Source: Chloroflexota bacterium
Lineage (GTDB): Bacteria; Chloroflexota; UBA11872
NCBI GenBank assembly: GCA_034423235.1
Contig: DAOUIX010000058.1
Location: 10,484 to 74,483, forward strand
Direction: 5' to 3'
DNA: 64,000 bases
The notes beneath the pieces are model-generated. The model had not been told where the DNA came from and did no database searches. It saw nothing but the letters and a program-made list of their open reading frames with translations. Position numbers and translations under genes: made by a program. This document shows, in pieces, positions 1 through 33,920 of the stretch (position 1 is its first letter; the number at the start of each line of letters is the position of its first letter).

Positions 1-798
1 CTCCATCGTATCGATCAGCTCGTTGACCGAGGCCGTGGGTCCGCTCCCGATGTTGAAAGTCTCGCCGATCGGTAGTTCATCGAGCACGCGAACCTGCGCA
101 TCGACCGCATCAGCCACATATGTGAGCTCCCGCGTTTGCTCGCCGTCGCCGTAGATCGTGATCGGTTGGCCGGTGGCGATGGCCCTCAGTCCGATGTGCA
201 CGAGCATGTCGGGCCGCTGCCGGGGCCCGAACAGCGTGTAGTACCGAAGCATGACTACCGGCAGACCAAACAGCCGGTGGTAGGAACTGAGCAAGTGTTC
301 ATCCAGCAACTTGGTCATGGCGTAGAACGAACGCGGCTCAAGTTCGTGGTCCTCGGGCGTCGGCATCCTGGGATTGAAGCCGTAAATCGAAGACGTTGAG
401 GCGAAGCTGAAGAGTTTGACGCCGGCGCGCAACGCGGCGTCCGCCAGCCGCTGCGTCGAGCGGCTGTTGTCCTGCATATATCGCTGAAAGTTTGTCGGTG
501 TCCAGCCCTCGCGGACGCCGGCACGGGCCGCGAGGTGAAACACGTATTCCACACCTTCGACCACCTGGTCCAACTCAAGCTCGGCGTCCAAGAGGTGAGC
601 CTCGACGAACTCGAAATCCTCGTGCTGGCGGAGCGTCTTGAGATTCGCCCGCTTCTGCTCAAGGTCGTAGCTATCGGTCATCCCATCGAGACCGATGACT
701 CGATGGCCTCGCGCAAGCAGCGACTCGCAGAGATGGGACGCAATGAATCCGGATGCCCCTGTGACGAGCGTTACCGGACGGCTGCTTCCCTGTGGCAT
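1..798 (-). CDS. NAD-dependent epimerase/dehydratase (UDP-glucuronate 4-epimerase-like), 3' end runs off the window
   Basis: Own reverse-complement translation from ATG at c(796-798): MPQGSSRPVTLVTGASGFIASHL... (Rossmann GxxGxxG), then LDGMTDSYDLEQKRANL and HLAARAGVREGW, which resemble UDP-GlcA 4-epimerase/GalE-family motifs. No stop in window, so absent from the ORF track. Confidence 0.8.
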   Translation of the reverse strand, partial: MPQGSSRPVTLVTGASGFIASHLCESLLARGHRVIGLDGMTDSYDLEQKRANLKTLRQHEDFEFVEAHLLDAELELDQVVEGVEYVFHLAARAGVREGWTPTNFQRYMQDNSRSTQRLADAALRAGVKLFSFASTSSIYGFNPRMPTPEDHELEPRSFYAMTKLLDEHLLSSYHRLFGLPVVMLRYYTLFGPRQRPDMLVHIGLRAIATGQPITIYGDGEQTRELTYVADAVDAQVRVLDELPIGETFNIGSGPTASVNELIDTME

Positions 799-867
799 CA
801 AATCCCCGCGTGAAGAAAGCGCGCCGGCCGCGCGCTGCGAAAGTATATCGGCGAGCCAATCGCCGCG

Positions 868-2004
868 TTACGCGGCGGCGTCGCGAATGACTGACGCATA
901 GAGGGCGCGCGTTGCGGCACGCATACCCTCCAAGTCGAACACTTCGGTCGCGTGCCGTCGCGCGCCGGAGCCCATTCGCGCCCGGCGCTCCGTATCGAGC
1001 AGGACCGACGTCAATTCAGAAGCCAGCGCTTGCTCGTCTCCCTGGGGAACGAGCAATCCGGTCTTGTTGTGCTCCACGATTTCGGGAACGCCTCCAACGG
1101 CCGTCGCCACAACTGGCCGACTGGCCATTGCGGCTTCCATCACCACGAGTCCCAGGCCTTCCCAGTCCGATGCCAGCACGACAACGTCTGCGGCGGCCAT
1201 CAGGTTGGGGATGTCCGCGCGCACACCCAGCCACCTCACCGCATCGCGCAGGTCCAGATCGACAGCTAGCTGGAGCAACCGCGCCCGGTACGCGGGTCCG
1301 CCCAATTGGGTCTCGCCAGCGCAGAGCAACTGGGCGTTACCGAGCTCTCGGCGGACGCGCGCAAACGCCCGCAGAAGCATGTCGTGGCGCTTCTGTGGAT
1401 CGAGACGCGCAGGGCAGAGAATGACTGGCACGTCCGCCTCAACTCCGAGCCTCTGGCGCGCGACCATGCGACTCAGTCCGGTGAAAGGCGTGGGATCCAG
1501 CCCGTATCGAATGACCTCCAGCCGGTCTCGCGGAACGCCAAGCTGCTGGTTCGCCCAACGAGCGACCGCTTCGGAAATGGCGATCGTGCGCCTCGTGGGA
1601 CGTGTCGCCAGCGCGTGAAGGGCGCGCGCCGACGCCGATTCAAGCCGCGTTTCGATGTTGTGCTTGGTGGACACGATGGCACTGACGCCGGCCACCCGCG
1701 CCGCCAGCGCGCCATACATGTCGGCACGCAGCAGGTGCGTATGCACCAAGACATAGCGATCGCGCTTGATCTGCGCCGCCAGCCGGGGCAGATGGACAGC
1801 GCCGAAGGGACCAGCCATGGGAATGTGCGACATGCCATCAACGCAGGCCTCAAATTCCGAGCGCAGGTCGTGATCGCGAAAGTAGACAAGGTCAATCTCT
1901 GCAAACTCGCGTAGGCCGGGAAGCAATTCCAGCAAGTGCCGCTGGGCGCCACCGACCGCCAGCGATGTCACGACTTGGAGAACGCGTGGTCGGCGTTTCG
2001 TCAC
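868..2004 (-). CDS. glycosyltransferase family 4 (GT-B)
   Basis: 378 aa ORF. N-terminus LQVVTSLAVGGAQRHLLEL is typical of GT4; ATGA overlap with the upstream gene. Confidence 0.8.
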   Translation of the reverse strand: MTKRRPRVLQVVTSLAVGGAQRHLLELLPGLREFAEIDLVYFRDHDLRSEFEACVDGMSHIPMAGPFGAVHLPRLAAQIKRDRYVLVHTHLLRADMYGALAARVAGVSAIVSTKHNIETRLESASARALHALATRPTRRTIAISEAVARWANQQLGVPRDRLEVIRYGLDPTPFTGLSRMVARQRLGVEADVPVILCPARLDPQKRHDMLLRAFARVRRELGNAQLLCAGETQLGGPAYRARLLQLAVDLDLRDAVRWLGVRADIPNLMAAADVVVLASDWEGLGLVVMEAAMASRPVVATAVGGVPEIVEHNKTGLLVPQGDEQALASELTSVLLDTERRARMGSGARRHATEVFDLEGMRAATRALYASVIRDAAA

Positions 2005-3221
2005 GTGCGGCTGGACAACACAGCGTCGTACCGGGCGAGCGTCTGCTCGACCTGCCGTTGGAGTGAAAACGCCGATGCGGCGCGCTGCTGACCCGCCTCG
2101 CCCAGTCGTTGTGCATGCTGTGGATCACTCACGATGAGGTCCAACCGATCGGCTAAGGCCAACGCATCGTTGGGATCAATGGTGTACCCCCAGGCGCCAT
2201 CCGTCACGATCTCTGGACCGGCGCCAAGCGTGGACGCAATGACTGGGCGACTTGCCGCCATCGATTCGATAATCGTCAGATTGAACGGGTCGGGGTAGGT
2301 CGAAGGCGCCAAGGTCACCGTCGCGGCGGCGTAGGCGTCGCGTAGCGCCTCTGGCTCCATCCAGCCCGGCAACAGAAGGCGGTCACCCACGCCTAACTCG
2401 TCAGCCAGCCGCTGCAGCTTGGGCGCATAGCGCGGGTTCTCACCGGCGATCATCAGGCGCAGGTGGGGATGTTGCGAATGCGCCAGTGCGTGCAGCGCCG
2501 CCTCGGCGCCCTTCTCTCGCGAAACGCGCGCGGCCAGCAGCGCCAGCGGCGCCCCATCCAGCCCATGGGCCGAGCGAAACGCCGCGCCATCGCCACCGCC
2601 CCACCAGTCCAGGTCTACCCCGTTGTAGACGACCTCGGCGCCTCCGAAGCCGTTGGCACGCAATGCAGTCTGCAGCGTCCGGCTGATGGCGAAGAGGTGA
2701 CTTACGTGCTTCGCCATGTGGTGGTCAATCACAACGTTGCGAGCCGGGTTCCAGCGGAAGCGCTGGCACTTGGCGCAGTTGAACCAGCGCTGGCGGAAGT
2801 CGACGGGTCCCCCCGTACAAATGAACTTGATGCAGCAAAAGAGTAGGTAGTCGTGGGCCGTGTAAAGCACCGGCACCCCAAGGCGCGCCGCCGCGGACAG
2901 CGTCGCGAATGACAGGTGCTGATGCACATTGTGCGCGTGGACAAGTTCAGGCCTGAAGTCAGCCAGTTCACGACGCACGCCTGGCAGGACCATCGGGTTG
3001 GCCATGGCCACGGTGTTGCGAAACCGCTCCGGATAGCGCGATCGCAGTCGCCGCACGCGCACGCCGTCCTGCTCTTGAATCGATCCTCGCCCCGACGTGG
3101 TGGAAACAACACACACGTCGTGCCCTTCCCGAACAAACGCGCCGGCCAGGCGCTCTACCACCACACCGGCTCCGCCCCGGTTGTCGGGGGGATAGGTATC
3201 GGCCAGTAAGGCGATTCGCAT
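2001..3221 (-). CDS. glycosyltransferase family 4
   Basis: 406 aa. MRIALLADTYPPDNRGGAGVVVERLAGAFVREGHDVCVV is a typical GT4 N-domain. Confidence 0.8.
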   Translation of the reverse strand: MRIALLADTYPPDNRGGAGVVVERLAGAFVREGHDVCVVSTTSGRGSIQEQDGVRVRRLRSRYPERFRNTVAMANPMVLPGVRRELADFRPELVHAHNVHQHLSFATLSAAARLGVPVLYTAHDYLLFCCIKFICTGGPVDFRQRWFNCAKCQRFRWNPARNVVIDHHMAKHVSHLFAISRTLQTALRANGFGGAEVVYNGVDLDWWGGGDGAAFRSAHGLDGAPLALLAARVSREKGAEAALHALAHSQHPHLRLMIAGENPRYAPKLQRLADELGVGDRLLLPGWMEPEALRDAYAAATVTLAPSTYPDPFNLTIIESMAASRPVIASTLGAGPEIVTDGAWGYTIDPNDALALADRLDLIVSDPQHAQRLGEAGQQRAASAFSLQRQVEQTLARYDAVLSSRT

Positions 3222-3253
3222 TTGGCTCGGCCCGAGGGAGGAGTGGCGCGATT

Positions 3254-4324
3254 CTAGGCGGTGTAGGCCGCCAGACAGCGATCTGCCACCGCGGACCAGG
3301 TAAAGCGGCCCACAACATGCTCACGAGCGACCTTGCCCTGCGTCCCCGCCTGGTCGATTGAAGCCGCCAGTGGCGTTAGTGCGCGACGCAGTCCCTCCGG
3401 ATCGCTCGGGGGGACGATGATCCCGCCAACTTGGGGAATGATCTCGGGCATTCCGGCCACGTCCGAAACCACAGCCACGGTCCCGCAGGCCATGGCTTCC
3501 AGCGGCGCCAGCCCCACCAGTTCCGGCAACGGATGATGGCGACCACGGTAATCCTCGTAGACCGATGGCATGACAAATGCGCAGGCCGACTGCATTGCGG
3601 CAATTACCTCCGCATCCGATGCCCCGATGTGTATCCGCACGCGACGCTCCGCCGCCTCTGACCGAATGAACTGGAGATAGTCCGTGTCGTAAGGACGCCC
3701 AAACACGTCGAGCGACGCACCGGACGGCAACCCTCGAATCGCTGTTTCGATGCCCTTGTGCGGCAGCAAGCGACCCACGTATACGACGCTGCCGGGTGTT
3801 TTTTCAGTACCGGGTGCGTACTTGGACGTATCAACGCCTGCGTAAATGACTTCCGTTCGCCGCCCCACATACGGAAGCGTGGCAGCCGCGAACTCGCTCT
3901 GTGCCAACTGACCGTCAATCCAGCGACCAATGCGTAGACGGCGAACCCAGTTCACGCCACCGCCACCGTGGTCGGTAACGAAGACGCGCTTGCCCAGCGG
4001 ACGTCCGAGCAGCGTGGTCAGTGCCGCGAGACCTGATCTGGCCTGGTGGCAATGGACGACATTGGCCCAGGCGAGGGCGCCCAGAAATCCCGGACCGATC
4101 GCGTCGTAGCGGCGTCCACGGAGCCGCCGCCAGGTTCGATGCACCTCAATATCGAATCCATCCACACGGCGGATCCCGGGCTGATCGCCGAACGAGACCA
4201 GGCGCGTCGGTGTGCGTCGGCGCAGGGCGATGGCCAACTCCAGCGGATAGCGCTCACCACCGCCGCGCACCGATTCGTCGCCGAACCAGGTTGGCGACAG
4301 ATGCAGGACGCGGAGGTCGCTCAC
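3254..4324 (-). CDS. glycosyltransferase family 4
   Basis: 356 aa. LRVLHLSPTWFGDESVRGGGERYPLELAIAL and a C-terminal GT-B domain. Confidence 0.75.
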   Translation of the reverse strand: MSDLRVLHLSPTWFGDESVRGGGERYPLELAIALRRRTPTRLVSFGDQPGIRRVDGFDIEVHRTWRRLRGRRYDAIGPGFLGALAWANVVHCHQARSGLAALTTLLGRPLGKRVFVTDHGGGGVNWVRRLRIGRWIDGQLAQSEFAAATLPYVGRRTEVIYAGVDTSKYAPGTEKTPGSVVYVGRLLPHKGIETAIRGLPSGASLDVFGRPYDTDYLQFIRSEAAERRVRIHIGASDAEVIAAMQSACAFVMPSVYEDYRGRHHPLPELVGLAPLEAMACGTVAVVSDVAGMPEIIPQVGGIIVPPSDPEGLRRALTPLAASIDQAGTQGKVAREHVVGRFTWSAVADRCLAAYTA

Positions 4325-5142
4325 AACGACCGCTCGGCCACGATGAGGTATCCCCCGGGATCTTCAACCGGACGCCGGAATGGTCGCCAGAGGAGTGCCG
4401 TCCACAGGGCGACCCAAAGCGTCGGTGGCACGAGTCGCCGACGCTGTAGACCCCGAAACCAGTCGAGCACTCGGCGTCCGCCTACGCGCCGGACCATGAG
4501 CTCATCGAGCCGCCTCCAGGTTCGCTGTGTCGCCGCCGGCAGGTGACCCCGGCTTTCAACCACCGTCAGGCCGACTTCCGCCAAACGCGCCGTCCAGTCC
4601 TCCAGCGACCGATAGTGAAAATGGCCCAGACGAGTGTTCGTGGCCGTCAAGGCTTCGCTGCCCGACTCGGCCTCGATGCGGGCTGCAAATGCAGGCGCCG
4701 GCACCGTAAACACCAGACGCCCGCCGGGATGCAAGATCCTGGCGGCCTCCCTGACCGCGCCCAGGTCATCCGGGATGTGCTCCAGGACGCTGTGGCTGTA
4801 GACGGCGCCGTAGGCGGCCGAAGCTAGTGGAAGGCCTGTGCCGTCCGCTCGCATGACGGTCCGGTAGACCCCGGATGCATGGGCGACTTGAGCTTCAGTT
4901 GAAACGAGTTCCAGCCCATCAATGGGCCAGTGCGACCGCAGCACGTAGCGCGCGACTTCGCCGGTTCCGCAACCCAGGTCAAGCACGGGTGCGGCGAATG
5001 CGACACCCCGAAGCATGGCGAATTCGGTGGCGCGCCAGAGCGCGATGGCTGGCTGGTGCAGGTGCGCGCGCAGGGCCAGCTTCAGAACGTCGGCATCGCT
5101 GCGAGCCACAAGTGCCGTAGGAAATCTAGCGTCACTCATCAA
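4321..5142 (-). CDS. class I SAM-dependent methyltransferase (Methyltransf_11-like)
   Basis: 273 aa. LDLGCGTG SAM motif I, and HSVLEHIPDDL...GGRLVFTVP motifs II/III. Confidence 0.8.
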   Translation of the reverse strand: MMSDARFPTALVARSDADVLKLALRAHLHQPAIALWRATEFAMLRGVAFAAPVLDLGCGTGEVARYVLRSHWPIDGLELVSTEAQVAHASGVYRTVMRADGTGLPLASAAYGAVYSHSVLEHIPDDLGAVREAARILHPGGRLVFTVPAPAFAARIEAESGSEALTATNTRLGHFHYRSLEDWTARLAEVGLTVVESRGHLPAATQRTWRRLDELMVRRVGGRRVLDWFRGLQRRRLVPPTLWVALWTALLWRPFRRPVEDPGGYLIVAERSL

Positions 5143-6181
5143 TGGCGTTTTCGATCAACTGCCGCATCCGAATCTCGTAGGTGTGGTCGCGTTCCACGCG
5201 ACGTTTACCGGCGATCGTGATTGCACGACGTGTCGCCTCGTCATTCAGATGGCGCTCGATGGCTGTCGCCACATCGTCGGCGTCTCTGTAGACGGCAAGC
5301 TCGGTTCCAACCTTGAAGAGATCGTCCATCCGAGCCTTGTAGTCCGTGAGCTGAAAGGCGCCGGCGGCCGGAATCTCAAAGGTCCGCATGTTTGGACCTT
5401 CGCGCATCTGTGCATGGTGGACATTGAGCACGATCTTGGCGCCGCGGTAGGCGCGCCCGACGGCGGCTGCGGGAAGCAGGGTCAGACCTCGATGCGCCTC
5501 GCGAACGCGATAGGGCGCCTCCAACTTCTCCCAGCCTCGGCCCCATACCGCCAGATTCACGCCCGAACGTGCAACGGCCTCCAGAATTTCAACCCTGGAT
5601 CGACTGGACGGGAGATGCCCCATGTTGTGCCGCGCATCGCCGACGAAGATGACGTCGATCGAATCTTCGTCCGCGTCATCACCGGCCCACGCGGCCGGAT
5701 CCACGGCGTGCGGCATAAACCTCGCCTGCACACCGCGCGGTTCCAGATCGTGAGCGTACGTCGGATCGGCCAGATAGAAGCGGTCGTAGAGGTGCGCGGC
5801 CCCGATGATGTTGGGGAACCAACTCGGGTCGTCGCCACACCATTGCGCGACCGGTCCGCCGGTCACGTTCCGCAGGCGACCGATGGTTTCCGGCAGCAAG
5901 ACCTCGCCCTTGAGAATCAGCGTGAACTCGGGCCGCAGTTCGGCCGCCAGCCGGAGCGCATCCAAGTTGTCGGCTTGTGCCGCCTGAAACACCCGCGCAA
6001 TGTGGAATCGGTCGGGCCCGGTCCACCGACGTCGAACTCGTCCCCAGGCTCCAACCGGTCGATCAAGCCGCTCGCTATAGCGGTAGGTCCGAACGTCGTG
6101 ACCAGCGTCGCGCAGCCCCTGACTGCAGTATTCGGTCCAGCGTCCGGTATCCCAATACGGACCGATCAGCAGGACGCGCAT
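5132..6181 (-). CDS. CgeB-family / GT1-like glycosyltransferase
   Basis: 349 aa. C-terminal NMRTFEIPAAGAFQLTDY...AVYRDADD resembles the CgeB/Glyco_trans_1_2 C-domain. Confidence 0.6.
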   Translation of the reverse strand: MRVLLIGPYWDTGRWTEYCSQGLRDAGHDVRTYRYSERLDRPVGAWGRVRRRWTGPDRFHIARVFQAAQADNLDALRLAAELRPEFTLILKGEVLLPETIGRLRNVTGGPVAQWCGDDPSWFPNIIGAAHLYDRFYLADPTYAHDLEPRGVQARFMPHAVDPAAWAGDDADEDSIDVIFVGDARHNMGHLPSSRSRVEILEAVARSGVNLAVWGRGWEKLEAPYRVREAHRGLTLLPAAAVGRAYRGAKIVLNVHHAQMREGPNMRTFEIPAAGAFQLTDYKARMDDLFKVGTELAVYRDADDVATAIERHLNDEATRRAITIAGKRRVERDHTYEIRMRQLIENAIDE

Positions 6182-7323
6182 GCCTGCTCGATCGCGTGCC
6201 AGACACTGCGTCCGGCAGCGTCCCAGGTGAAGCCGGCGGCTCGTTTCAGACCGCGGGCAATCAGGTCTCCGCGCAGATTGGCATCGCTCGTAACCCGAAC
6301 GAGCGCTTCCGCAACCTCGTCGAGGTTGTCGGGATCCACGGGTAGACCGGCGTCACCAACAACCTCAGCCAGGCCCGCATCGTTCGCGACGACGACCGGC
6401 ACTCCCGTTGCCATGGCTTCGAGCGCCGGCATTCCGAAACCCTCGGCTGTAGCCAGGCTCACGAATCCTCGAGCGCCCGCCATCACTAGCGGAAGGTCGC
6501 TGGCGGGCACGCGACCAAGGTAGTGAACCGCATGCGATCCTGCGCTCGCCATTGCCTGTAGTGACTCGTCGGACCGCCAGCCATCTCCACCCGCAACGAT
6601 GAGCAGGTCGGACAGCCCAGCGTCGCGGGCTCGCATCACGGCCTGGACGAGCCGTGGAATGTTCTTTCGCGGCTGAATGGTCCCGACGAACAGGAGGTAG
6701 GGTGAATCCAGACCGTGGCGACTGAGACACGCCGCAATATCCCCTGGGGCATGGTCACTGTGAAAGCGCGTTTGATCACAACCATGTCGGGCAACGATCA
6801 CCTGATCGGGCGATACGCCATAGGTTTGAACGACGTCTTGGGCAACGGTCTCCGAGACAGTGATGATTGACCGGGCCGAGTGGACGTTCAGCGCTGTCCA
6901 GCGGTCCAATTCAGCCAATTCAGGCGCGCCAAAGTTTGATGGAGCGTCGTCATGTGCAAACGCGAGGTCGTGGACGATGGCCACCCGTGTGCGCACGCCA
7001 AACGCGGGCGGCGGCTCGTGCGCGCTCTGCACGTATGCGTCCCACCTGCTCCAGCAGCCCTCCAGACCTAACCGTACGCGATACCACGGATCGCCCCCAG
7101 ACGCGGCTCGTAGCATCCGGTTGCCACCTGGCAACGGCCGCAGCACCCGGAATCGGACTCCCGGTTCGGCGGGCTGCGGGAATCGCGGCGCCGCATCCGC
7201 CAGCAGCTCCAGCGAATGGCCGGGATTCGTTCCGGCCATTCCAGCGATGAGCCCACGCATGCTCTCGCCTGCCCCGTCCGGAATCCCGAGATTTGCGTTT
7301 CGAATGTTAAGAGCTATGCGCAT
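6166..7323 (-). CDS. glycosyltransferase family 4
   Basis: ORF 6166-7365. Probable start at the internal Met (MRIALNIRNANLGIPDGAGESMRGLIAGMAG), which leaves a 7-nt gap after the flippase stop. C-terminal EGFGMPALEAMATGVPVV is the GT4 signature. Confidence 0.75.
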   Translation of the reverse strand: MRIALNIRNANLGIPDGAGESMRGLIAGMAGTNPGHSLELLADAAPRFPQPAEPGVRFRVLRPLPGGNRMLRAASGGDPWYRVRLGLEGCWSRWDAYVQSAHEPPPAFGVRTRVAIVHDLAFAHDDAPSNFGAPELAELDRWTALNVHSARSIITVSETVAQDVVQTYGVSPDQVIVARHGCDQTRFHSDHAPGDIAACLSRHGLDSPYLLFVGTIQPRKNIPRLVQAVMRARDAGLSDLLIVAGGDGWRSDESLQAMASAGSHAVHYLGRVPASDLPLVMAGARGFVSLATAEGFGMPALEAMATGVPVVVANDAGLAEVVGDAGLPVDPDNLDEVAEALVRVTSDANLRGDLIARGLKRAAGFTWDAAGRSVWHAIEQACASC

Positions 7324-7330
7324 TACGCCC

Positions 7331-13702: not shown

Positions 13703-13704
13703 GG

Positions 13705-15513: not shown

Positions 15514-15517
15514 AGTT

Positions 15518-19582: not shown

Positions 19583-19633
19583 CGGCTCTCGCGGCTCGCG
19601 CCAAGCAAAGGCGCCGTGCGCTCCGCCTATCGA

Positions 19634-20755: not shown

Positions 20756-20982
20756 GAGCCGGAGGCCTCTCCGGTCTCGGGCGGGATCGCGTCTTCCCAC
20801 AGCATGTTGGGAATGCCGTCCTCCACTCTGTACCGGTAGCCGCAGACCGTACAGACGAGGTGTTCGCCCTGAATGCACAGCACGCCGTCATCGCGCGGAT
20901 GCGCGTCGTTCACGCAGCGCAAGATCGCCAGGAAGTCGTCCGGAATGAGCGGCGGCGCGGACGTCGCGTCCGTATCAGCCAT
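20752..20982 (-). CDS. Trm112/YcaR-like (DUF343) zinc-ribbon small protein
   Basis: 76 aa. LIPDDFLAILRCV...HLVCTVCGYRYRVEDGIPNMLWEDAI matches the Trm112p-like fold (compare E. coli YcaR ...ELICK..AFPLRDGIPVLLE). Confidence 0.7.
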   Translation of the reverse strand: MADTDATSAPPLIPDDFLAILRCVNDAHPRDDGVLCIQGEHLVCTVCGYRYRVEDGIPNMLWEDAIPPETGEASGS

Positions 20983-21011
20983 GAGTGTCGCCTGCTCCCT
21001 TCACTTGGAAG

Positions 21012-23258: not shown

Positions 23259-23282
23259 GCGAAGAATTGGCCGCGAGCCCGT

Positions 23283-24863
23283 CTACTCACCGACAAGCTC
23301 GCTCACAAGTGCGTGCAGTCGCGTTCGAAAGGCTGATGTATTGAACCGTTCGCTCGACTTCCTGGCTTGCCGTGCCATGTCGGATCGCATATCCAGGTCG
23401 CGTACTAGATCCCAACTCCGCGCTCGAAGCTCGGCGGTTGATGACCAGAGAAAGCCATCGTGTCCGTCCCGAACCAGTTCGGGCAGCCCGCCCTGATTTA
23501 GCACCACCGGGACGGCCTCATTGGCCATTGCCTCGACGACGGAAATGCCGAAGTGCTCAAACTTCACCGGGTTGCGTTGTACTTGTTCACCGTACCCTGC
23601 GGCGTGCCAGTAGATCTGCGCTTCAGCGTAGAAGCGTTGCAAGTCCGCGAACGGCGCATCGATGGCGAATTCAATGGGATGGCCTGCGGCGCGACGCCGC
23701 AGATCGTCGGAATAGGCCAGGTCGATGTCCCGGCGGCTCTGGTGCCCGGCGAGGCGGAGCGTCCACCCGTCCAGGCCATCGCGGCACATCCGTTTGAATT
23801 GCTCGATCATCACTCCGTGCTTCTTCTCGTGCGTGCCGCGAAAGAAGCGCCCAACGCTCAGGATCGTTCGAGTCTTGGCCACCGGAGTGGCCCAGCTCGT
23901 GTCCACCGGTGGATAGAGCAGCGGTCCGCTGCGTCCCCAGTAGACCTCCATCCACGTGCGGCTGTATTCGGAGATCGGGCAAATCAGGTCGTAGGTATCG
24001 AGATGATCGAGCGAGTAGAAGGCTGGCAGCCCTTCCAGTCGCAACCCGAGTTCTCGGAACATTCGGCGAAAGAGCAACTCGTAGAGAAGGTGTCGCGGGT
24101 GACGCACTCGTACGTCGGTGACGGCCAACCCGACTTCACGGTTGTCAGCCTCGGCCACCCGATCGGTGGGATTGAAGGTCGGTGATTCCAGCGTCAACTC
24201 AACCATGCCGTTCCGCACGTATCGGCGGTCCAGATTGATACGCCAGGCCTCAAAAGCGCCTGGACGCGGCGCGAAGGAGCGCTCGGCGATTGGCGTTCCC
24301 TCCGCCAGGCAGCGCACCGGAAGACTCGCGTCCGGACGGAAATTCCCCGCCACAATCTCAATGGGCACAGGACGCCTTCCACCCGGCACGCGCAGCCGGA
24401 TCGACGCTTGGTCGGTGGCGTAGCGAAACCAGCCCCGGCCCAGCTCCTGCACGTCGTAGAAACCGTCGCTCCACTCCGGCAGCAGCAATTCCCGTGTAAG
24501 GAATCGACCGACAGCCTGACGAAGCCTCGCCTGCCAGCTCCGATCGATCGGAGACGGAAAGAGGACAAGCATCAGGCTGTGCGCCGCAGCCGACGGTTGG
24601 TTGGTCATGAACGAGGCGTTGACAAACAGGTCGTACTCGCGCGTGACCTCGGCAAACCTGTTTGGCGGCAGCGCCGGAATCACACGAATGCCGATTCCCT
24701 CCAGGCTCATGTGCAGCGCATCAGCCAGTTCATCGCGCCCGATCGGGCGGTGCGTGATGAGCTCGGTGTCAAACCGCTCGGCCAGAATGCGGGCCGCCAT
24801 GACGGCGTGTCGCTCGCCGCCACCCTTCTGATGCAGCCAGCGGTTGTAGACCGCCGCCTTCAC
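23283..24863 (-). CDS. glycosyltransferase family 4 (long form)
   Basis: GTG start at c(24861-24863) overlaps the GT2 TGA (GTGA), giving (M)KAAVYNRWLHQKGGGERHAVMAARIL. C-terminal EHFGISVVEAMANEAVPVV is the GT4 signature. The 62-aa N-extension in the ORF track is rejected. Confidence 0.75.
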   Translation of the reverse strand: MKAAVYNRWLHQKGGGERHAVMAARILAERFDTELITHRPIGRDELADALHMSLEGIGIRVIPALPPNRFAEVTREYDLFVNASFMTNQPSAAAHSLMLVLFPSPIDRSWQARLRQAVGRFLTRELLLPEWSDGFYDVQELGRGWFRYATDQASIRLRVPGGRRPVPIEIVAGNFRPDASLPVRCLAEGTPIAERSFAPRPGAFEAWRINLDRRYVRNGMVELTLESPTFNPTDRVAEADNREVGLAVTDVRVRHPRHLLYELLFRRMFRELGLRLEGLPAFYSLDHLDTYDLICPISEYSRTWMEVYWGRSGPLLYPPVDTSWATPVAKTRTILSVGRFFRGTHEKKHGVMIEQFKRMCRDGLDGWTLRLAGHQSRRDIDLAYSDDLRRRAAGHPIEFAIDAPFADLQRFYAEAQIYWHAAGYGEQVQRNPVKFEHFGISVVEAMANEAVPVVLNQGGLPELVRDGHDGFLWSSTAELRARSWDLVRDLDMRSDMARQARKSSERFNTSAFRTRLHALVSELVGE

Positions 24864-26221
24864 GACATCTCGATGAACGGACGTAGTTCGCGACCGTCCA
24901 AAGGAGCGAGGCGCGATTCGATGCCACGCAGCTGCCACGTCCCGGGCCACGCACTCGCCGAGCTGCCCAGCGCGCGCAGCCGCGCGAGAACCAGGCGCGC
25001 CGCGTGCGCGTTGCGGCGGTCGACCGCGTGCCGCGCGTCGCCAAATGCAAACTTGCAAGCGGCAGCCGCGTGTCGAGCCACCCAGATCCAGGGCGCGTTT
25101 TTGGCGAGCATTCGCAGCTTGCCGAACTCAACATTGCATACGAACCCTGGCGACCACTCCCGGCTGAGCGCGGCGTGCTCGTGGCGCACAACCGAGTCCG
25201 GCTCGAACCAGAATCGCCAGCCGCGGCGTCGAGCGCGCCAGGCCAGGTCGGCATCCTCGTAGTACATAAATATGCCGTCATCCAGGAATCCGAGGGCCTC
25301 CAGCATTGCGCGACGGTAAAGCACGGCGGCCCCTTTGCAGGCAAAGACCTCGCACGGTTCGCGAAAGGCTGGGCCGTCCCATGCCGACCACGGTACGCCG
25401 CCGAGCAGGTTGGTTCCCCGATCACGCATTGACCCGTCATTCAGCGGTGCAATCCCTGCGCATTCAATCGCGGGTTGCGCCAGCCGGGCAATGAGTTCGG
25501 CGGGCAGGCCAAACCGAAGAGTCGAGCGAGTGCCTGGGGTCCGAGCCTCACCCAGGACGTGGTCGCCGGCCAGGACACGTACCGACGCGTCTGCCCGATC
25601 ATCGCCTGCCTCAATGTCCAGACGCAGCGCTACCGACGTTGAGGCAACCGGCACGGCAAGCTCGGCGCGCGCCTCGGTCCATCGAAATAGCTGGCCGTAC
25701 GCGTCGACCTCCTGGCTAAAGGCGCCACCAGTCACGTCGGCCCTGCCGTGGTTGGCATTGGCGCCGTAGAGGCGAATGCCTAACTGCCGGGTATCAAGTT
25801 CTGAGGGCACAAAGGTCGGGACGGTCAGTGTTACCGGCAATCGGTCATGCTGGTGCAGCAGCTTGGCCCCGACGCCACCGGCCAGCGGGTCGCGTTCGAG
25901 GCGCGCCACCAGCGGCTCCAGCCAGTCTGGCTCAACCTCAGTGTCGGGGTTGAGCAACCCAAGGTACGGCTCGGCCGACGCGCGCAGCGCGCGGTTATTG
26001 CCCCGTGCAAAGCCCAGATTTGCGCCGTTCTCAATCAACTCGACTCCAGGAAACCCCTGCTCAACGCGGGCTGGCGACCCATCGCTCGACGCGTTGTCCA
26101 CGACGGTCACGCGCAAATCGGAATACCGAGTAGCCAGCAACCGTTCAAGGCAGCGTTCGATGCGCCCGGCGCCGTTGTAATTAAGCACGACCACCCGAAC
26201 GGGCGGCAGGCCGGCGGTCAC
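24860..26221 (-). CDS. glycosyltransferase family 2 (GT-A)
   Basis: 453 aa. VRVVVLNYNGAGRIERCLERL...VTVVDNASSDGS...NLGFARGNNRAL matches the GT2 DXD region. Confidence 0.8.
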   Translation of the reverse strand: MTAGLPPVRVVVLNYNGAGRIERCLERLLATRYSDLRVTVVDNASSDGSPARVEQGFPGVELIENGANLGFARGNNRALRASAEPYLGLLNPDTEVEPDWLEPLVARLERDPLAGGVGAKLLHQHDRLPVTLTVPTFVPSELDTRQLGIRLYGANANHGRADVTGGAFSQEVDAYGQLFRWTEARAELAVPVASTSVALRLDIEAGDDRADASVRVLAGDHVLGEARTPGTRSTLRFGLPAELIARLAQPAIECAGIAPLNDGSMRDRGTNLLGGVPWSAWDGPAFREPCEVFACKGAAVLYRRAMLEALGFLDDGIFMYYEDADLAWRARRRGWRFWFEPDSVVRHEHAALSREWSPGFVCNVEFGKLRMLAKNAPWIWVARHAAAACKFAFGDARHAVDRRNAHAARLVLARLRALGSSASAWPGTWQLRGIESRLAPLDGRELRPFIEMS

Positions 26222-27924
26222 TCCACCCGGATCGAGCGCACAGCGATCCCAAGCGGTCGAGTGTCGGTGTCCAGACCCACGGTGGCTGGAACCAATGCGT
26301 CGTCGACTTCAATCACGAGTTCGTGCGTTGTTGGCGAGGTCACTGGGTCCAGCGGGATCACCAGATCCTCAAAGTCCATGCCATGAAGCCGAAACGTCGC
26401 AATATGTCGCCCGTCAACGCGCACCCGGCCCTGGGCCTGCGCGCGGCCATGCAGCGGACGACAGGCGGACAAGACCAGCGCGCCCTGGCCGACATCCTGA
26501 CGCAGGTAGGCCACGGCTCGTTCGCTGGTCCACCGCACGCGCGGCGGCCAGTCTTCCGCCGGAAACCAGCCTTCGCCCAACCACTCGGCGTCGCGCGCGC
26601 CCATGGCCAGATGTTCGGGCGGAGGCGCCCACAACGGGCCAGCCGGTTCGGTGAGCATGTCCGGCTGCGCGATCGGCGAGGACTCGGTGCGCAGTTCCCC
26701 ATCGGGCGGAGCCAAGGCAACTCGCCACTGCGACGGCACCACGGTCACGCCGCGCTGGCTGGCCGCGGCCTTGCCAACGAAAAACGTCATGGCAACCGGC
26801 CACATGTGATACGGGTGCAGTCGATCATCAGACGGCCAGACGCCCAGCGACAGCTGATAGCTGCCCGGCCCGAGGGGCAACGGCCCCAGCGAGCACTCCA
26901 CGCGCGTGCGGCCAGGCTGCACGGCGGTTGGTCCCGGCGTGGCGGCCGTCGACGTCTCGTGCATGAGCAGGCCGTCGCTGCGCCGGACGGCACAGCCGAC
27001 GACGACATCGTCCAGATAGGCGTCGGATTCCAGATCCAGGTGCAGGCGCAGGACACCACCGGGAAGAAAAGCGTAGCTCTCGGCGCCGGTTGCGGCGTCG
27101 GTGGCCGTCGCCGCGCGAATTCGAAGCCTCTCGCCGCCGAGTTCGGGTGTGGGCTCGTCGCGCTCGGCTGCCGTCACGGTCGCCGCGCCACGCATGTACT
27201 GAAGGTATTGCTGGATCACGTCGCGCGGATCGCCAAGCGCCTGAATCTCGCCTCGGTCGATCCAGAGCACGCGGTCGCAGAAGCGGCGCACCTGGATCGG
27301 ATCGTGGGAAACAAACACCAGCGTGCGGCCGCGTGCCTTGATCTCCGCCAGCGCTTCGTAGCACTTGGCCGTGAACCGCGCATCGCCGACCGCCAAGACC
27401 TCGTCGATCAGCAGGATGTCGGGGTCGACGTTGATGGCGATGGAGAAACCCAGACGCATAAACATCCCGGACGAGTAGTGGCGAACCGGCGTGTCGATGA
27501 AACGCTCGAGCTCCGCGAAGGCCACGATGCGGTCGTAAAGCTGCCGCATTTCGTGGCGCTCAATACCGAGGAACGACCCATTCAGAAAGATGTTCTCGCG
27601 GCCCGTCAGGTCCGGGTGCATGCCGGCGCCCAGTTCAAGCAGACCGAAGACCTTGCCGTGCGCAACCACGTCGCCGGACGTCGGCTCGATCGTGCGTGCC
27701 AGCAGTTTGAGGATTGTGGTCTTGCCAGATCCGTTCGGTCCGATGATCCCCAGCGTCTCGCCGGCAGCTACCTCAAGGTCAACCCCGTCAAGCGCCCAGA
27801 ACTCTTCGTGCTCGATCGGTCGGCGGCCGAGCAGAGCCAGCGCCATGCCCTGCCACGTCCGCGCTGCCTCGTGCCGGATCCGAAATCGCTTGCGGACCTG
27901 TCGGAGTTCGATGGCGGCAGGCAT
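26218..27924 (-). CDS. wzt: ABC transporter ATP-binding protein Wzt/TagH-type with ~300 aa C-terminal glycan-binding extension
   Basis: 568 aa. Walker A GPNGSGKTT, signature YSSGMFMRLGFS, Walker B LLIDEVLAVGD, then a long C-terminal beta-rich domain. Confidence 0.85.
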   Translation of the reverse strand: MPAAIELRQVRKRFRIRHEAARTWQGMALALLGRRPIEHEEFWALDGVDLEVAAGETLGIIGPNGSGKTTILKLLARTIEPTSGDVVAHGKVFGLLELGAGMHPDLTGRENIFLNGSFLGIERHEMRQLYDRIVAFAELERFIDTPVRHYSSGMFMRLGFSIAINVDPDILLIDEVLAVGDARFTAKCYEALAEIKARGRTLVFVSHDPIQVRRFCDRVLWIDRGEIQALGDPRDVIQQYLQYMRGAATVTAAERDEPTPELGGERLRIRAATATDAATGAESYAFLPGGVLRLHLDLESDAYLDDVVVGCAVRRSDGLLMHETSTAATPGPTAVQPGRTRVECSLGPLPLGPGSYQLSLGVWPSDDRLHPYHMWPVAMTFFVGKAAASQRGVTVVPSQWRVALAPPDGELRTESSPIAQPDMLTEPAGPLWAPPPEHLAMGARDAEWLGEGWFPAEDWPPRVRWTSERAVAYLRQDVGQGALVLSACRPLHGRAQAQGRVRVDGRHIATFRLHGMDFEDLVIPLDPVTSPTTHELVIEVDDALVPATVGLDTDTRPLGIAVRSIRVE

Positions 27925-28014
27925 TTAGACGCTGGACTCCCTTCGCGGGCCTAGACTGGCCACGCGCCGATAATGATCGGCTTGCGGCCGGCACCTGACC
28001 GAGAGGAACACGCG

Positions 28015-28476
28015 ATGCAACTGAGTTTCGAAACAACGGAGGTGGAGTCCCAGCCGATCCTGGCTATCCGCGCGACGAGCACGATGGACAAGCTCGGAGA
28101 AATCATGGGGTCGCTGTTTGGGGAGGTCTACGAATTCATCCAGGCAAGCGGGCAGGCGCCCGCCGGAATGCCCTTTTCCCGCTACCACTCGATGGACAGC
28201 GGAACCGTCGACCTCGAATGTGGAATGCCCGTGGCGTCGGTGATGGATGGCAAAGACCGGATCCAGGCCGGCGAGTTGCCGGCCGGAATGGTGGCTACGG
28301 TCACGCACATGGGGCCCTACGACAACCTCCCGCAGACATGGTCCGCGCTGACGGCGTGGATAGATTCGCAGGGTCTCCAACCCGCTGGAGCTCCCTGGGA
28401 GGTGTACGTGACCGACCCTGGCGCCGAACCGGACCAGTCGAAGTGGCGGACCGACATTTTCTTTCCCGTTCGCTAG
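28015..28476 (+). CDS. GyrI-like (AraC-effector-binding / SRPBCC-type) small-molecule-binding domain protein, stand-alone
   Basis: Starts at Met MQLSFETTEVESQPILAIR and ends ...PWEVYVTDPGAEPDQSKWRTDIFFPVR, the canonical GyrI-like C-terminus. No DNA-binding domain is present. Confidence 0.65.
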   Translation: MQLSFETTEVESQPILAIRATSTMDKLGEIMGSLFGEVYEFIQASGQAPAGMPFSRYHSMDSGTVDLECGMPVASVMDGKDRIQAGELPAGMVATVTHMGPYDNLPQTWSALTAWIDSQGLQPAGAPWEVYVTDPGAEPDQSKWRTDIFFPVR

Positions 28477-28600
28477 CCAGCGCCCGGCGCCGAGCGCGCG
28501 CTTCGGACTTGCGTGGAAGGCGGCGTGCGGTGCGCGCTGCGTTTCGGCGGGCGGTCTCGGATTCGTCCGAACCATGCTTAGTCGGGCATCCGCATGCGCA

Positions 28601-29461
28601 CTACAGTTCTTCGGCGAAGCGGCTGGCCAGCCGTCGGAACAACCACCACCCAAGGCCCAGCAGTACGAGTGCGGTCACGATCGTCGCCAACGTGTGCCGA
28701 ATTGGCGGGAACCCCCACATGAAGGCATAGCGGTAGTCCGTTACGAGGGTGGCCATGGGATTAAGTATGAAAACCCAGCGGTGAATATCGAGTCCGAACA
28801 CCGTGTTATTTGGAACGATGGACATCGCGTAAAAGATCGGCGTCAGGAAGAACCAGGCCAGGATCCCGACTTCGACGATCTGCTCGGTGTCCCGGAAGAA
28901 CACGTTGACGGCGGCCAGCAGCAGCCCCAGCCCAAGCACGAACACCAGATGCAGGAACATCACCAGCGGAACGGCCAGCATGGTCCGCGTCGCTCCAACG
29001 CCGAAGGGCAGGGCCACGAGCCAGAAGACGACGTAGGCCAGCACGAAGTTGACGAAGCTGGCCAGCACCGCGCTCAGCGGCAGGAGTTCGCGCGGAAAGT
29101 AGACCTTCTTGATCAGCAGAGCGTTCGACGTGACGCTTCGCATGGCCGTAGTCAGCGCGTGCTGCGTAAACAACCAGGGAATCAGGGCACTGAGCAGGAA
29201 AAACGGGTACCGCTCAATCGGATCGGACTTGGCCAGCACCTGGAAGACCAACGTGAAGACCCCCATCATCAGCAGGGGGTTCAACAGAGCCCAGGCAAAC
29301 CCGAGCACCGAACCCCGATAGCGAACCTTCAGGTCGCGCACAACCAGGTTGCGCAGGAGGTCCGCGTATCCCAGCAACTCGCGCGCGGCGCCTGCAACGT
29401 CTCGGGCCGGGGCGAAACGCCCCTTTGCAGCAACAGTGGCCATAAGAAGACCCCTCGACAA
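28601..29461 (-). CDS. wzm: ABC-2 type polysaccharide export permease Wzm
   Basis: 286 aa, 6 TM. LRNLVVRDLKVRYRGSVLGFAWALLNPLL is the ABC-2/Wzm signature. The start could instead be the internal Met at c29443. Confidence 0.85.
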   Translation of the reverse strand: MSRGLLMATVAAKGRFAPARDVAGAARELLGYADLLRNLVVRDLKVRYRGSVLGFAWALLNPLLMMGVFTLVFQVLAKSDPIERYPFFLLSALIPWLFTQHALTTAMRSVTSNALLIKKVYFPRELLPLSAVLASFVNFVLAYVVFWLVALPFGVGATRTMLAVPLVMFLHLVFVLGLGLLLAAVNVFFRDTEQIVEVGILAWFFLTPIFYAMSIVPNNTVFGLDIHRWVFILNPMATLVTDYRYAFMWGFPPIRHTLATIVTALVLLGLGWWLFRRLASRFAEEL

Positions 29462-29551
29462 AGGGGCCAGCTATTCTACCCGCGCGCCCGCCGTGGGCGC
29501 GGCACCGTGCTACGCTGCGGAGTCCGACAGGCGTTGGAGCCTGCGCAGCGC

Positions 29552-31889: not shown

Positions 31890-31959
31890 CGGCCCCATAC
31901 CCGGAAATGCAGAAACCCATGCGATACCAAGCTGTCATGCCACCCAGCAGGTGGTTGCC

Positions 31960-33255: not shown

Positions 33256-33315
33256 GCCAGCCCGGCTCGTTCGGTACGCTGGCGGCCACCATCTCGCCCC
33301 AGCGGAGACGATCCT

Positions 33316-33786: not shown

Positions 33787-33843
33787 GCCGCTCTCCCCTC
33801 TCCGTTGAGGCTTCCAGAGCAAATTCTGTCGGCAGCCATTCGC

Positions 33844-33849: not shown

Positions 33850-33857
33850 CTCGCCAG

Positions 33858-33890: not shown

Positions 33891-33920
33891 CATTTTGCGG
33901 CGTGCCGCGTCTGGCGGACT

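Follow-up and report, generated by a model that had tools for sequence, protein, structure and literature searches.

A cell-envelope glycan locus with two export systems in a sponge-associated Chloroflexota bacterium is best read as three separable modules

We analysed a cell-envelope glycan locus of about 32 kb in an uncultured, sponge-associated Chloroflexota bacterium which, judging from its phylum, is most likely a monoderm without LPS. The best reading is that the locus consists of three separable modules, A (ABC export), B (Wzx/YfhO) and C (priming), and is not one indivisible operon. Within the window (the whole stretch of 64,000 nucleotides analysed, to which all coordinates refer; features lie on its minus strand unless stated otherwise), an unbroken minus-strand run of 22 genes leads, as the original prediction had it, from wzt (26218-27924) to an epimerase gene truncated by the left window edge (1-798). 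All but one of these genes (21 of 22) have a Pfam match. They encode ten GT4, one GT2 and one CgeB-like transferase, a Wzx-family flippase, Wzt with a carbohydrate-binding domain, two GT-C enzymes (PMT_2 type and YfhO type), a radical-SAM/Trm112 pair, an acetyltransferase, a methyltransferase and a lyase-fold protein. Eleven GT4 genes had been counted in the window; the eleventh lies beyond the left edge, where the locus continues with this gene and a WcaJ/WbaP-type priming enzyme. The earlier gene list was otherwise largely right, but lacked two conserved genes, a 76-aa Trm112-like ORF (20752-20982) and that of a 602-aa protein (13705-15513). Family searches gave no match to Wzy, Wzz, LCP or WaaL in any locus protein, and family and transmembrane predictions revealed no unassigned polytopic membrane protein among them.

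The junctions within the run are short: ATGA/GTGA overlaps of 4 nt occur at 10 of 21, three others overlap by different lengths (-8, -16 and -58), and the rest are gaps of 2-87 nt. The 4-nt overlaps are therefore not near-universal, as had been stated, but most junctions (19 of 21) do overlap or have gaps below 35 nt. The proposal of one giant polycistronic unit nevertheless finds no support in the sequence, in which wzm is cut off by an opposite-strand gene, the boundaries carry motifs and the modules are separable.

The largest gap of the chain (87 nt), between the radical SAM gene and GT4a, holds the -35/-10-like motif TTGnnn-N17-TAGCGT-N7-ATG, which is invariant in 32 of 32 relatives. In the window this promoter-like element at the start of module B (TTGTCC-N17-TAGCGT, 19554-19582) ends 7 nt before the ATG of GT4a, and its sequence, GGTGCTAGCGTCC, is unique in the 64 kb. 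Each relative contains the element once, at the same position, including three loci with differing upstream DNA (L025, L028 and L033); several relatives have a stop codon after the in-frame TTG at 19582, which shows the element to be non-coding. At the start of module C, a -10-like hexamer, TAGAAT (3251-3256), overlaps the stop codon of GT4g and lies 30 nt upstream of the GT4h ATG. It is kept before GT4h in L040, L068 and L069, in the last of which module C is detached and inverted. Another TAGAAT (29473-29478) is found 30 nt upstream of the wzm ATG; the hexamer has only three copies in the window, and the wzm and GT4h copies share their spacing to the ATG. Conserved elements, promoter-like by geometry and conservation only, sit exactly on the module boundaries. 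Generic promoter and terminator scans performed at chance level. Transcription probably reads through from one module into the next, since the boundary gaps measure no more than 87 and 32 nt and hold no convincing terminator.

Related loci were found by a genome scan with GT4b as the query. The gene order from wzt to wzx is kept in about 30 related Chloroflexota MAG species, and the proposed check of whether homologous loci retain wzx together with wzt had a positive outcome: both genes lie in one collinear block in 23 species-level MAG loci (those long enough to show both ends), at 45-94% amino acid identity. The A-B junction, with a gap of 52-91 nt, recurs in 27 of 32 relatives spanning the same range of identity. 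In other lineages the modules are found apart, inverted or interrupted: (i) B and C occur without A in L066/67, L070 and L025/L072, (ii) an ABC exporter accompanies orf602 and YfhO, without Wzx, in L064/65, (iii) genome OZ244789.1 has module C in inverted orientation at a distance of about 5 kb, with GT4g as the last gene before it, and (iv) an MmeI-type gene of opposite strand is inserted at the radical SAM/GT4a junction in L033. As B and C can stand alone in other lineages, the acceptor of the YfhO-type enzyme need not be the module A polymer. Taken together, comparative genomics and sequence motifs point to separate wzt- and wzx-associated gene sets, a division which the original prediction had itself named as evidence against a single unit.

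Module A includes wzm (28601-29443), encoding an ABC-2 permease with about six transmembrane segments (PF01061, 48.6 bits), and wzt, encoding an ABC ATPase with a carbohydrate-binding domain (ABC_tran and Wzt_C). Both parts of the predicted exporter are present, but wzm is not just upstream of wzt: between them lies a plus-strand gene for a GyrI-like small-molecule-binding protein (27973-28476; PF06445, E 2.9e-20), also called by the source annotation. This gene, found in 18 of 19 near-clade loci and absent from the mid and far clades, is a clade-specific insertion separating wzm from wzt; in more distant relatives (L022-24, L026-32) wzm is directly upstream of wzt on the same strand. A minus-strand ORF in this interval (27925-28575) gave no family match. 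The best PDB match of Wzt is the Aquifex Wzt with its carbohydrate-binding domain (8dku/7k2t; residues 31-400, E 1e-69), and its C-terminal 168 aa have no Pfam match and are not a repeat of the binding domain. The GT2 transferase (24860-26221; 453 aa; PF00535, 79.7 bits), predicted as the only one and supported as such by its family, is soluble (no transmembrane segment); its top NCBIfam matches are MftF and PgaC, and the ArnC- and GtrB-type families are not among the matches listed. It is followed by a long GT4 transferase (23283-24863; 526 aa; Glycos_transf_1), whose start at 24863 (GTGA overlap) agrees with the source gene call, and by the PMT_2-type GT-C enzyme (21012-23258; PF13231, 32 bits against a cut-off of 26.1), which has at least ten transmembrane segments and weakly matches the LA_3751/3752 family. 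With the GT2 enzyme soluble and not ArnC/GtrB-like, there is no evident donor for this PMT_2-type enzyme, and none of the module A genes encodes a priming enzyme. The Trm112-like zinc-ribbon protein (20752-20982; PF03966, 22.3 bits against a cut-off of 22; NCBIfam Trm112_arch, E 1.8e-7) is kept in all relatives. Its neighbour, a radical SAM/SPASM enzyme (19634-20755; PF04055 and PF13186), has BtrN and BlsE as closest solved structures and is the most conserved protein of the locus, with a median identity of 94% in the near clade.

Module B carries seven GT4 genes, all assigned by Pfam: GT4a (18383-19546; ATG start backed by the alignment of relatives), GT4b (17256-18386), GT4c (16120-17259), GT4d (12494-13702), GT4e (8797-9927), GT4f (6166-7323; variable across relatives and missing in L040, L066 and L070) and, as the final gene, GT4g (3254-4324). 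Beside them are genes for a hexapeptide-repeat O-acetyltransferase of WcaF/WbbJ type (15518-16123; PF00132; NCBIfam WcaF/WbbJ about 64 bits), absent from the far clade, a SAM-dependent methyltransferase (4321-5139; Methyltransf_23/11) and the predicted CgeB-like transferase (5132-6181; Glyco_trans_1_2, PF13524, 114.7 bits), likewise family-supported. The soluble 602-aa product of orf602 (13705-15513) has no Pfam family above threshold; its AlphaFold2 model (pLDDT 92.5) indicates a polysaccharide-lyase/GAG-epimerase-like fold, the best Foldseek matches being GAG lyases, PL17, heparinase III, PL33 and DS-epimerase 1 (E ~1e-9). It is conserved in relatives and always adjoins the YfhO-type gene in the loci compared, with just 208 representatives among 1.84 billion proteins. 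The YfhO-type membrane protein (9924-12551) matches the Pfam YfhO model (PF09586, 48 bits) in its C-terminal part only (the last 60 residues), and the top PDB matches of its AlphaFold2 model (pLDDT 86), down to E ~0.35, are all GT-C enzymes (AftD, ArnT, AftA, EmbB, STT3, PMT); its D71 is invariant. The predicted Wzx-type flippase (7331-8800) was confirmed as a MOP-family protein with about 12-14 transmembrane segments (PF13440, Polysacc_synt_3, 182.8 bits, and PF01943). Its top NCBIfam matches, an O-glycosylation flippase and WzxC-type proteins, are all below cut-off. We rejected identity with MurJ, given the Polysacc_synt_3 match and no MurJ/MVIN match.

Within the window, module C comprises GT4h (2001-3221) and GT4i (868-2004), both Pfam-assigned, and the NAD-dependent sugar epimerase/dehydratase (1-798; PF01370, 185 bits), which is complete, with 324 aa, in L005 and L068. 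The unit had been taken to end here, but an identical short contig and relatives of 79-84% identity continue with GT4j (395 aa) and a phosphoglycosyl transferase (CoA_binding_3 and Bac_transf; 471 aa), followed by convergent genes. The phosphoglycosyl transferase, which in L068 passes TIGR03025 (446 bits against a cut-off of 295.6), is the sole priming enzyme in the locus.

From these gene families, folds and synteny we infer, as follows, what the substrates and the acceptor may be, how the steps succeed one another and whether the two products are linked. [quoted passage not shown] Modules C and B would form a Wzx-dependent pathway without a polymerase: the off-window phosphoglycosyl transferase would prime polyprenyl phosphate, and up to eleven GT-B transferases (nine GT4 of the window, the off-window GT4 and the CgeB-like enzyme) would extend one large oligosaccharide. 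This would be O-acetylated and methylated, possibly also modified by the orf602 product, flipped over the membrane by Wzx and transferred on its outer side by the YfhO-type enzyme. Module A, joined upstream of B in this lineage, would serve an ABC-transporter pathway, in which GT2 and the long GT4 extend a primer, produced by enzymes encoded elsewhere in the genome, into a polymer. The binding domain of Wzt would recognise the polymer terminus, Wzm/Wzt would export the polymer, and the PMT_2-type enzyme would act in extracytoplasmic transfer; the radical-SAM/Trm112 pair probably modifies a sugar.

Alternatively, A and B+C may make two independent glycans, an ABC-exported polymer and a Wzx-flipped oligosaccharide, each with its own GT-C enzyme and different acceptors (protein, lipid or wall). 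We regard this as possible, though unlikely. It would explain adjacency by the clustering and co-regulation of envelope genes, and it is consistent with the loci having B+C without A nearby, with the ABC-YfhO-orf602 set without Wzx, with a promoter-like element for each module, and with the pairing of one GT-C with each exporter. On the other hand, the A-B junction is steadier than expected of unrelated neighbours, and the only priming enzyme of the locus belongs to module C. Co-regulation of two separate glycans could by itself account for the adjacency of the modules.

Two further explanations seem improbable. One operon might encode an ABC-exported backbone decorated with single sugars or small units by a GacIJKL-type system, GT2 making a polyprenyl-P-sugar that Wzx flips and a GT-C enzyme adds. 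Every gene class of such a system is present, all genes from wzt on share one orientation and are closely spaced, and S. pyogenes provides a precedent. However, GT2 has neither a transmembrane segment nor an ArnC-, GtrB- or GacI-type match nor a GacJ-like partner, and its gene, part of module A, is separated from wzx by 17 kb. The position of Wzx among eleven GT-B genes, with a diphosphate-forming priming enzyme, fits a large oligosaccharide better than a monosaccharide, and boundary motifs and module separability speak against a single obligatory transcript. Equally doubtful is general O-glycosylation of proteins (e.g. of an S-layer), with the GT-C enzymes as oligosaccharyl-transferases for the Wzx-flipped oligosaccharide and possibly also for the ABC-exported glycan. 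The locus has no polymerase or LCP ligase, "O-glycosylation flippase" is the top NCBIfam match of Wzx and streptococcal PgfM1/M2 are weak matches of the YfhO-type protein (all far below cut-off), STT3 and PMT are among the fold matches of the YfhO-type model, and some sponge Chloroflexota (SAR202) lack peptidoglycan genes (PMC6306507). All these family matches are weak, however, and the locus encodes no candidate acceptor protein.

The two export routes are normally alternatives, as originally stated, in classical O-antigen loci, but not in Gram-positive cell-wall polysaccharides, from which the pairing of ABC and Wzx is already known. The suggested hybrid route, an ABC-exported backbone with a Wzx-family flippase and a GT-C enzyme (PMT_2 or YfhO type), is documented for GacK/GacL of Streptococcus pyogenes and WpsG/WpsJ of Lactococcus lactis (PMC9574508, PMC8035078). 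As in ABC-dependent O-antigen export with a Wzt that reads a terminal cap (Aquifex aeolicus WzmWzt; E. coli O9a type), Wzt has a C-terminal carbohydrate-binding domain (residues 31-400 aligned) and the locus includes a methyltransferase. Unlike there, Wzt bears an extra C-terminal region of 170 aa, no WbdD-like terminator was recognised in the locus, the methyltransferase lies in module B and not beside wzt, and the host most likely has no LPS. Teichoic acid glycosylation by YfhO/CsbB/GtcA (Bacillus, Listeria, Staphylococcus) also uses a YfhO-family GT-C outside the membrane with a lipid-linked sugar donor; our locus differs in having no CsbB-type membrane GT2 or GtrA/GtcA flippase, in the constant pairing of the YfhO-type gene with a lyase-fold protein and a Wzx or ABC exporter, and in the restriction of its Pfam YfhO match to the last 60 residues.

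The gacA-L cluster of S. pyogenes (Group A carbohydrate) similarly combines, in one orientation, an ABC exporter (GacD/E), a Wzx-type flippase (GacK) and a PMT_2-type GT-C (GacL) (PMC8035078, PMC9574508). GacK, however, flips a monosaccharide carrier made by GacI/J, whereas the GT2 described here does not resemble GacI and wzx is surrounded by eleven GT-B genes; our locus is also three times larger and has two GT-C enzymes. The cwps locus of L. lactis (dual-chain assembly of rhamnan and polysaccharide pellicle) belongs to a Firmicutes host, and the Chloroflexota locus, compared with it, lacks rml genes, rhamnosyltransferases, an LCP gene and a polymerase pair like WpsI/WpsH. Its Wzx branch is primed by a WcaJ/WbaP-type enzyme (diphosphate) instead of the GacI/GacJ-type WpsA/B (monophosphate), and it adds the YfhO-type GT-C, the lyase-fold partner and the radical-SAM/Trm112 pair. 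[quoted passage not shown]

The glycan locus on the minus strand at the left end of the window consists, as gene order in related genomes shows, of three separable modules. Module A runs from wzm to the radical-SAM gene, B from GT4a to GT4g, and C from GT4h as far as the phosphoglycosyl transferase (PGT). The gene chain was established from six-frame ORFs, start-codon analysis, Pfam and NCBIfam scans and the source gene calls, and every gene from wzm to the epimerase has orthologs in relatives. Module A encodes the ABC-2 permease Wzm (28601-29443), Wzt with its ABC_tran and Wzt_C domains (26218-27924), a soluble GT2 (24860-26221), a long GT4 of 526 aa (23283-24863), a PMT_2-type GT-C enzyme with at least 10 TM segments (21012-23258), a Trm112-like protein (20752-20982) and a radical SAM/SPASM enzyme (19634-20755). 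Module B comprises GT4a (18383-19546), GT4b (17256-18386), GT4c (16120-17259), a hexapeptide acetyltransferase (15518-16123), the 602-aa protein orf602, which lacks a Pfam family (13705-15513), GT4d (12494-13702), a YfhO-type GT-C enzyme (9924-12551), GT4e (8797-9927), wzx (7331-8800), GT4f (6166-7323), a CgeB-like gene (5132-6181), a methyltransferase (4321-5139) and GT4g (3254-4324). It is followed by the window's part of module C: GT4h (2001-3221), GT4i (868-2004) and an epimerase truncated at the window edge (1-798). All of these genes lie on the minus strand, in a window of 62-70% G+C.

The ORF and family scans bore out the 22 genes that the original prediction had counted from wzt to the epimerase. 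It had also held that most junctions are overlaps or gaps below 35 nt, which is true of 19 of the 21. Its wording of “near-universal” 4-nt overlaps was too strong, as these account for 10 of the 21 junctions; three more are overlaps of other lengths, and the remaining gaps range from 2 to 87 nt. It gave eleven GT4 genes; ten were counted within the window, and an eleventh lies beyond the edge. An identical short contig completes the epimerase (324 aa) and shows another GT4 behind it. In the 79% and 84% relatives (loci L040 and L068) the epimerase is followed by a GT4 (395 aa), a PGT with CoA_binding_3 and Bac_transf domains, and then convergent genes. Since the locus extends beyond the window edge, the complete unit from wzt comprises 24 genes, about 31 kb and eleven GT4s. 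An initiator, a polyprenyl-phosphate hexose-1-phosphate transferase of the WbaP/WcaJ type, is thereby present outside the window: this is the PGT, with which the locus closes in L040 and L068; it passes the NCBIfam model TIGR03025 (446 bits, cut-off 295.6) and falls just under the WcaJ cut-off. Just beyond the PGT, L068 (14869-19666) and L069 (14743-18211) share a methyltransferase, a class-III aminotransferase and a LanC-like/GH127-like protein. These neighbours, kept in one close (L068) and one distant (L069) relative, might be further sugar-modification genes of the system.

A genome scan with GT4b as query, limited to one genome per species, yielded 32 related loci, all in Chloroflexota MAGs (GT4b identity 58-80%). 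JGI and Logan metagenome contigs carry exact copies of the window proteins, as does one 75 kb NCBI contig, and a metagenome scan with GT4i returned a single close relative, L040 (LXNI01...), which stems from a metagenome study of Mediterranean sponge (PMC5099237). The MAG names of several relatives look like sponge-host codes. Sponge SAR202 reportedly lack peptidoglycan genes, which Anaerolineae and Caldilineae possess (PMC6306507). When all window proteins were compared with the 32 loci by tblastn, a strictly collinear block emerged (wzt, GT2, GT4, GT-C, Trm112, radical SAM, GT4a-c, the acetyltransferase in part of the loci, orf602, GT4d, YfhO, GT4e and wzx), with identities of 45-94%. The co-occurrence of wzx and wzt, for which the original prediction had proposed a comparative test, was confirmed in 23 of the 23 loci long enough to show both. 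GT4f is absent from L040 and from the more distant L066 and L070, and the acetyltransferase was found in none of the eight far-clade loci; the glycan therefore differs across the lineage despite the kept gene order. Few parts of a genome are usually as variable as surface-glycan loci. The unusual stability of this 32 kb locus, collinear across about 30 species, leads us to infer that it specifies a core envelope structure and not a variable antigen.

The original prediction regarded the whole chain as one giant polycistronic unit. A single operon should be free of internal promoters and opposite-strand genes, and its genes should be inseparable across relatives; the locus probably departs from this picture, as it contains an opposite-strand gene and promoter-like motifs at both module boundaries, and in some relatives a module is inverted, interrupted or split off from the others. 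The opposite-strand gene lies between wzm and wzt (27973-28476, plus strand), its start codon 48 nt from that of wzt, and encodes a GyrI-like, stand-alone small-molecule-binding protein (E 2.9e-20). It was found in 18 of 19 close relatives and is absent from more distant ones, where wzm adjoins wzt on the same strand. Being confined to the clade nearest the window, it is a clade-specific insertion separating wzm from the remainder. A minus-strand ORF at the same place (27925-28575/28653) has no family match and was rejected as a gene; its apparent conservation of 50-60% only mirrors the GyrI-like gene opposite.

Both module boundaries are disrupted in relatives. Between the radical-SAM gene and GT4a (the A/B boundary), L033 carries a 3.6 kb insertion with an opposite-strand MmeI-type (type IIL) restriction-modification gene (L033 5560-8244) and L028 one of 0.9 kb, while in L025 unrelated opposite-strand genes lie upstream of GT4a and module A is found on neither side. 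At the B/C boundary (GT4g/GT4h), genome OZ244789.1 has module C inverted, about 5 kb away and convergent with the rest.

The A/B spacer, at 87 nt the largest gap of the chain, is variable in an alignment of 29 relatives without insertion, except for the element TTG(T/A)nn-N17-(G)GTGCTAGCGT-N7-ATG. A motif search found this element once per locus in 32 of 32 loci, always directly before GT4a, and it is kept in L025, L028 and L033 despite their different upstream DNA; GGTGCTAGCGTCC is unique in the window. In a whole-locus motif search of L064-L069 the element was not found. Its geometry is promoter-like (-35/-10), and a GT4a mRNA started from it would have no leader or almost none. We considered the TTG at 19582 as a GT4a start and rejected it, as the next in-frame codon is a stop (TGA) in L022-24, L027, L029 and L031; the stretch is invariant at the nucleotide and not at the protein level, and the stop codon marks the element as non-coding. 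The hexamer TAGAAT has only three copies in the 64 kb, and the two on the minus strand each precede an ATG by exactly 30 nt, in one case that of wzm and in the other that of GT4h. L040 and L068 keep the copy before GT4h, and so does L069, where module C is detached. These motifs give indications of internal promoters at positions where synteny independently sets the boundaries. Scans of 1-31000 for sigma-70 promoters and intrinsic terminators gave counts at or below shuffled expectation; the generic promoter scan missed the A/B motif because its -10 hexamer fits only 3 of 6 consensus bases. The RNA of the A/B spacer folds no better than shuffles (z = 0.46), and in relatives this spacer contains a GC-rich hairpin. 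As neither the terminator scan nor spacer folding yielded a convincing terminator, read-through across modules is likely. An Rfam search of the whole window at gathering thresholds found nothing.

The proteins of module A point to ABC-dependent export. Wzm matches PF01061 and Wzt is of the NCBIfam TagH/Wzt type (180-201 bits; PDB WzmWzt, E 1e-69), so that an ABC-2 permease is paired with a Wzt/TagH-type ATPase. Wzt carries the carbohydrate-binding domain PF14524 (38.4 bits, cut-off 30.4), and its residues 31-400, this domain included, align to the solved Aquifex Wzt (8dku). Such a C-terminal domain implies a capped chain terminus. The last 170 or so residues (26218-26724, minus strand) lie past the binding domain and are conserved in relatives, have no Pfam or PDB match, and were rejected as a duplicate of that domain, of which they are no repeat. 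The GT2 lacks a TM segment, its listed NCBIfam matches include none of the ArnC, GtrB or DPM type, and no small membrane protein of a GacI/GacJ-type set was found beside it. The PMT_2-type enzyme is a probable GT-C, with PF13231 above the cut-off. The Trm112-like zinc-ribbon ORF (76 aa) overlaps the radical-SAM gene by 4 nt (the pair spans 19634-20982, minus strand). No protein of the locus is more conserved than the radical-SAM enzyme (near-clade median 94% identity), for which BtrN and BlsE, both sugar-modifying, are the closest solved relatives.

In module B, the flippase was assigned to Wzx by its Polysacc_synt/Polysacc_synt_3 domains (PF13440, 182.8 bits; PF01943, 56 bits) and 12-14 hydrophobic segments, about 12 or more TM helices being expected. 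MurJ was rejected, since there is no MVIN match; the protein belongs to the Wzx family of the MOP superfamily. The YfhO-type protein matches its Pfam model at the C-terminus only. Its AlphaFold2 model (pLDDT 86) has as top PDB matches, up to E ~0.35, AftD, ArnT, AftA, EmbB, STT3 and PMT, all GT-C enzymes, and D71 is invariant in 34 sequences; the predicted polytopic GT-C fold would thus carry the conserved Asp of the first extracytoplasmic loop. PDB sequence searches with the PMT_2-type and YfhO-type enzymes, orf602 and Wzx returned nothing. No signal peptide or TM segment was detected in orf602, whose model (pLDDT 92.5) combines an alpha/alpha toroid with a beta-sandwich. Foldseek relates it (probability 1.0, TM ~0.5) to GAG and alginate lyases, PL17, heparinase III, PL33 and dermatan-sulfate epimerase 1 (DS-epi1), and the model predicts the overall two-domain fold of polysaccharide lyases and GAG C5-epimerases. 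Residues H41, R82, H338, D341 and R467 are invariant and C38, C115, C334 and Y149 nearly so, which suggests a putative active or metal site; the conserved Cys/His set of the family (C38, H41, H45, C115, C334, H338) looks like a candidate metal site. A profile search found only 208 representatives among 1.84 billion proteins. Five independent contexts were examined, and in every one no more than one gene stands between orf602 and the YfhO-type gene. A literature search found no report of heparinase-like proteins in flippase-containing clusters.

Loci of the Wzx/Wzy-dependent pathway contain a Wzy polymerase and usually the chain-length regulator Wzz. Pfam scans of the locus proteins gave no match to Wzy_C, O-ag_pol_Wzy, Wzz, LCP or WaaL, and Wzm, Wzx and the two GT-C enzymes account for all its polytopic proteins, leaving no unassigned one; of this pathway the locus has the WbaP/WcaJ-type initiator (L040, L068) and lacks the polymerase. 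No PF03816 match, diagnostic of LCP (LytR-CpsA-Psr) ligases, was found in the locus or the other scanned window ORFs. The locus genes encode no RmlA-D-type protein; the sole SDR, a GalE-like epimerase, stays under the NCBIfam cut-off. We conclude that there are two export-and-transfer pathways, in each of which an exporter is paired with a GT-C enzyme. In modules C and B, the PGT would prime synthesis, up to eleven GT-B enzymes would extend the glycan, and acetylation and methylation would precede flipping by Wzx and a YfhO-type transfer without a polymerase. In module A, GT2 and the long GT4 may polymerise a chain on a primer made elsewhere, whose terminus would be recognised by the Wzt binding domain before export and a PMT_2-type GT-C step.

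A composite product of both pathways is most likely, in view of the long-lived fusion of A and B in the window's lineage. A serious rival is that module A and modules B+C make two independent glycans. Distant homolog contexts, found through orf602 and YfhO (35-56% identity), show the modules apart: in L066/67 and L070, modules B+C are collinear with the window and are preceded by peptidase genes instead of module A; in L064/65, orf602 and YfhO are grouped with an ABC exporter that has Wzt_C, with methyltransferases and with a long GT4, Wzx being absent within 10 kb. Going beyond the composite product, one could propose that the YfhO-type GT-C and orf602 as its obligatory partner form a new two-protein machine, which ligates Wzx- or ABC-delivered polyprenyl-diphosphate-linked glycans en bloc and builds a lineage-defining composite envelope glycoconjugate without Wzy, WaaL or LCP in sponge-symbiotic Chloroflexota; we consider this full proposal improbable.

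The distant B+C versions also encode extra polytopic membrane proteins absent from the window (L066 5720-7024 and 16710-17894; L070 2545-3948). Those of 434-467 aa have no Pfam match and that of 394 aa is weakly DUF2079-like; a possible reading is that they are components of polymerase or ligase type which the window's lineage has lost.

Directly upstream of the locus lies a nucleotide-biosynthesis stretch (30225-41866, plus strand), with Pfam support for pyrG, purA, pyrB, a dihydroorotase-like gene and carA; its AhpC/redoxin and PRTase/pyrR-like genes are taken from the source annotation only, and 38624-41866 (plus strand) is assumed from size and position to be carB. Farther away, a BatA/VWA/DUF58 cluster (49086-54997, minus strand), one of whose proteins (880 aa) combines VWA and GATase1-like domains, resembles an aerotolerance (Bat/MoxR-type) operon.

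To our knowledge, experiments have revealed almost nothing about the cell envelope in uncultured Chloroflexota, the abundant sponge symbionts among them. The locus offers candidates for biochemistry, namely the YfhO-type enzyme with orf602 and the radical-SAM/Trm112 pair. It also calls for caution in annotation, since a long co-oriented run, even one rich in 4-nt overlaps, can be put together from separable units. In outline, it is similar to the streptococcal and lactococcal wall-polysaccharide systems. It differs from the Rha-CWPS loci, which carry rmlABCD and the rhamnosyltransferases RgpA/B/F, in having no rml genes, from the four-component GacIJKL and WpsAB-G-J systems in having no GT-A maker of polyprenyl-monophosphate sugar with a small membrane activator, and from the pathway for peptidoglycan-anchored wall polymers in having no LCP protein within the locus. 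Where the streptococcal and lactococcal systems have rml genes, a GacI/J-type initiator and an LCP ligase, the window locus has none of these and has a WcaJ/WbaP-type PGT instead. The combination of ABC exporter, Wzx flippase and GT-C enzymes known from streptococci and lactococci thus has a counterpart here, put together independently in a phylum remote from theirs.
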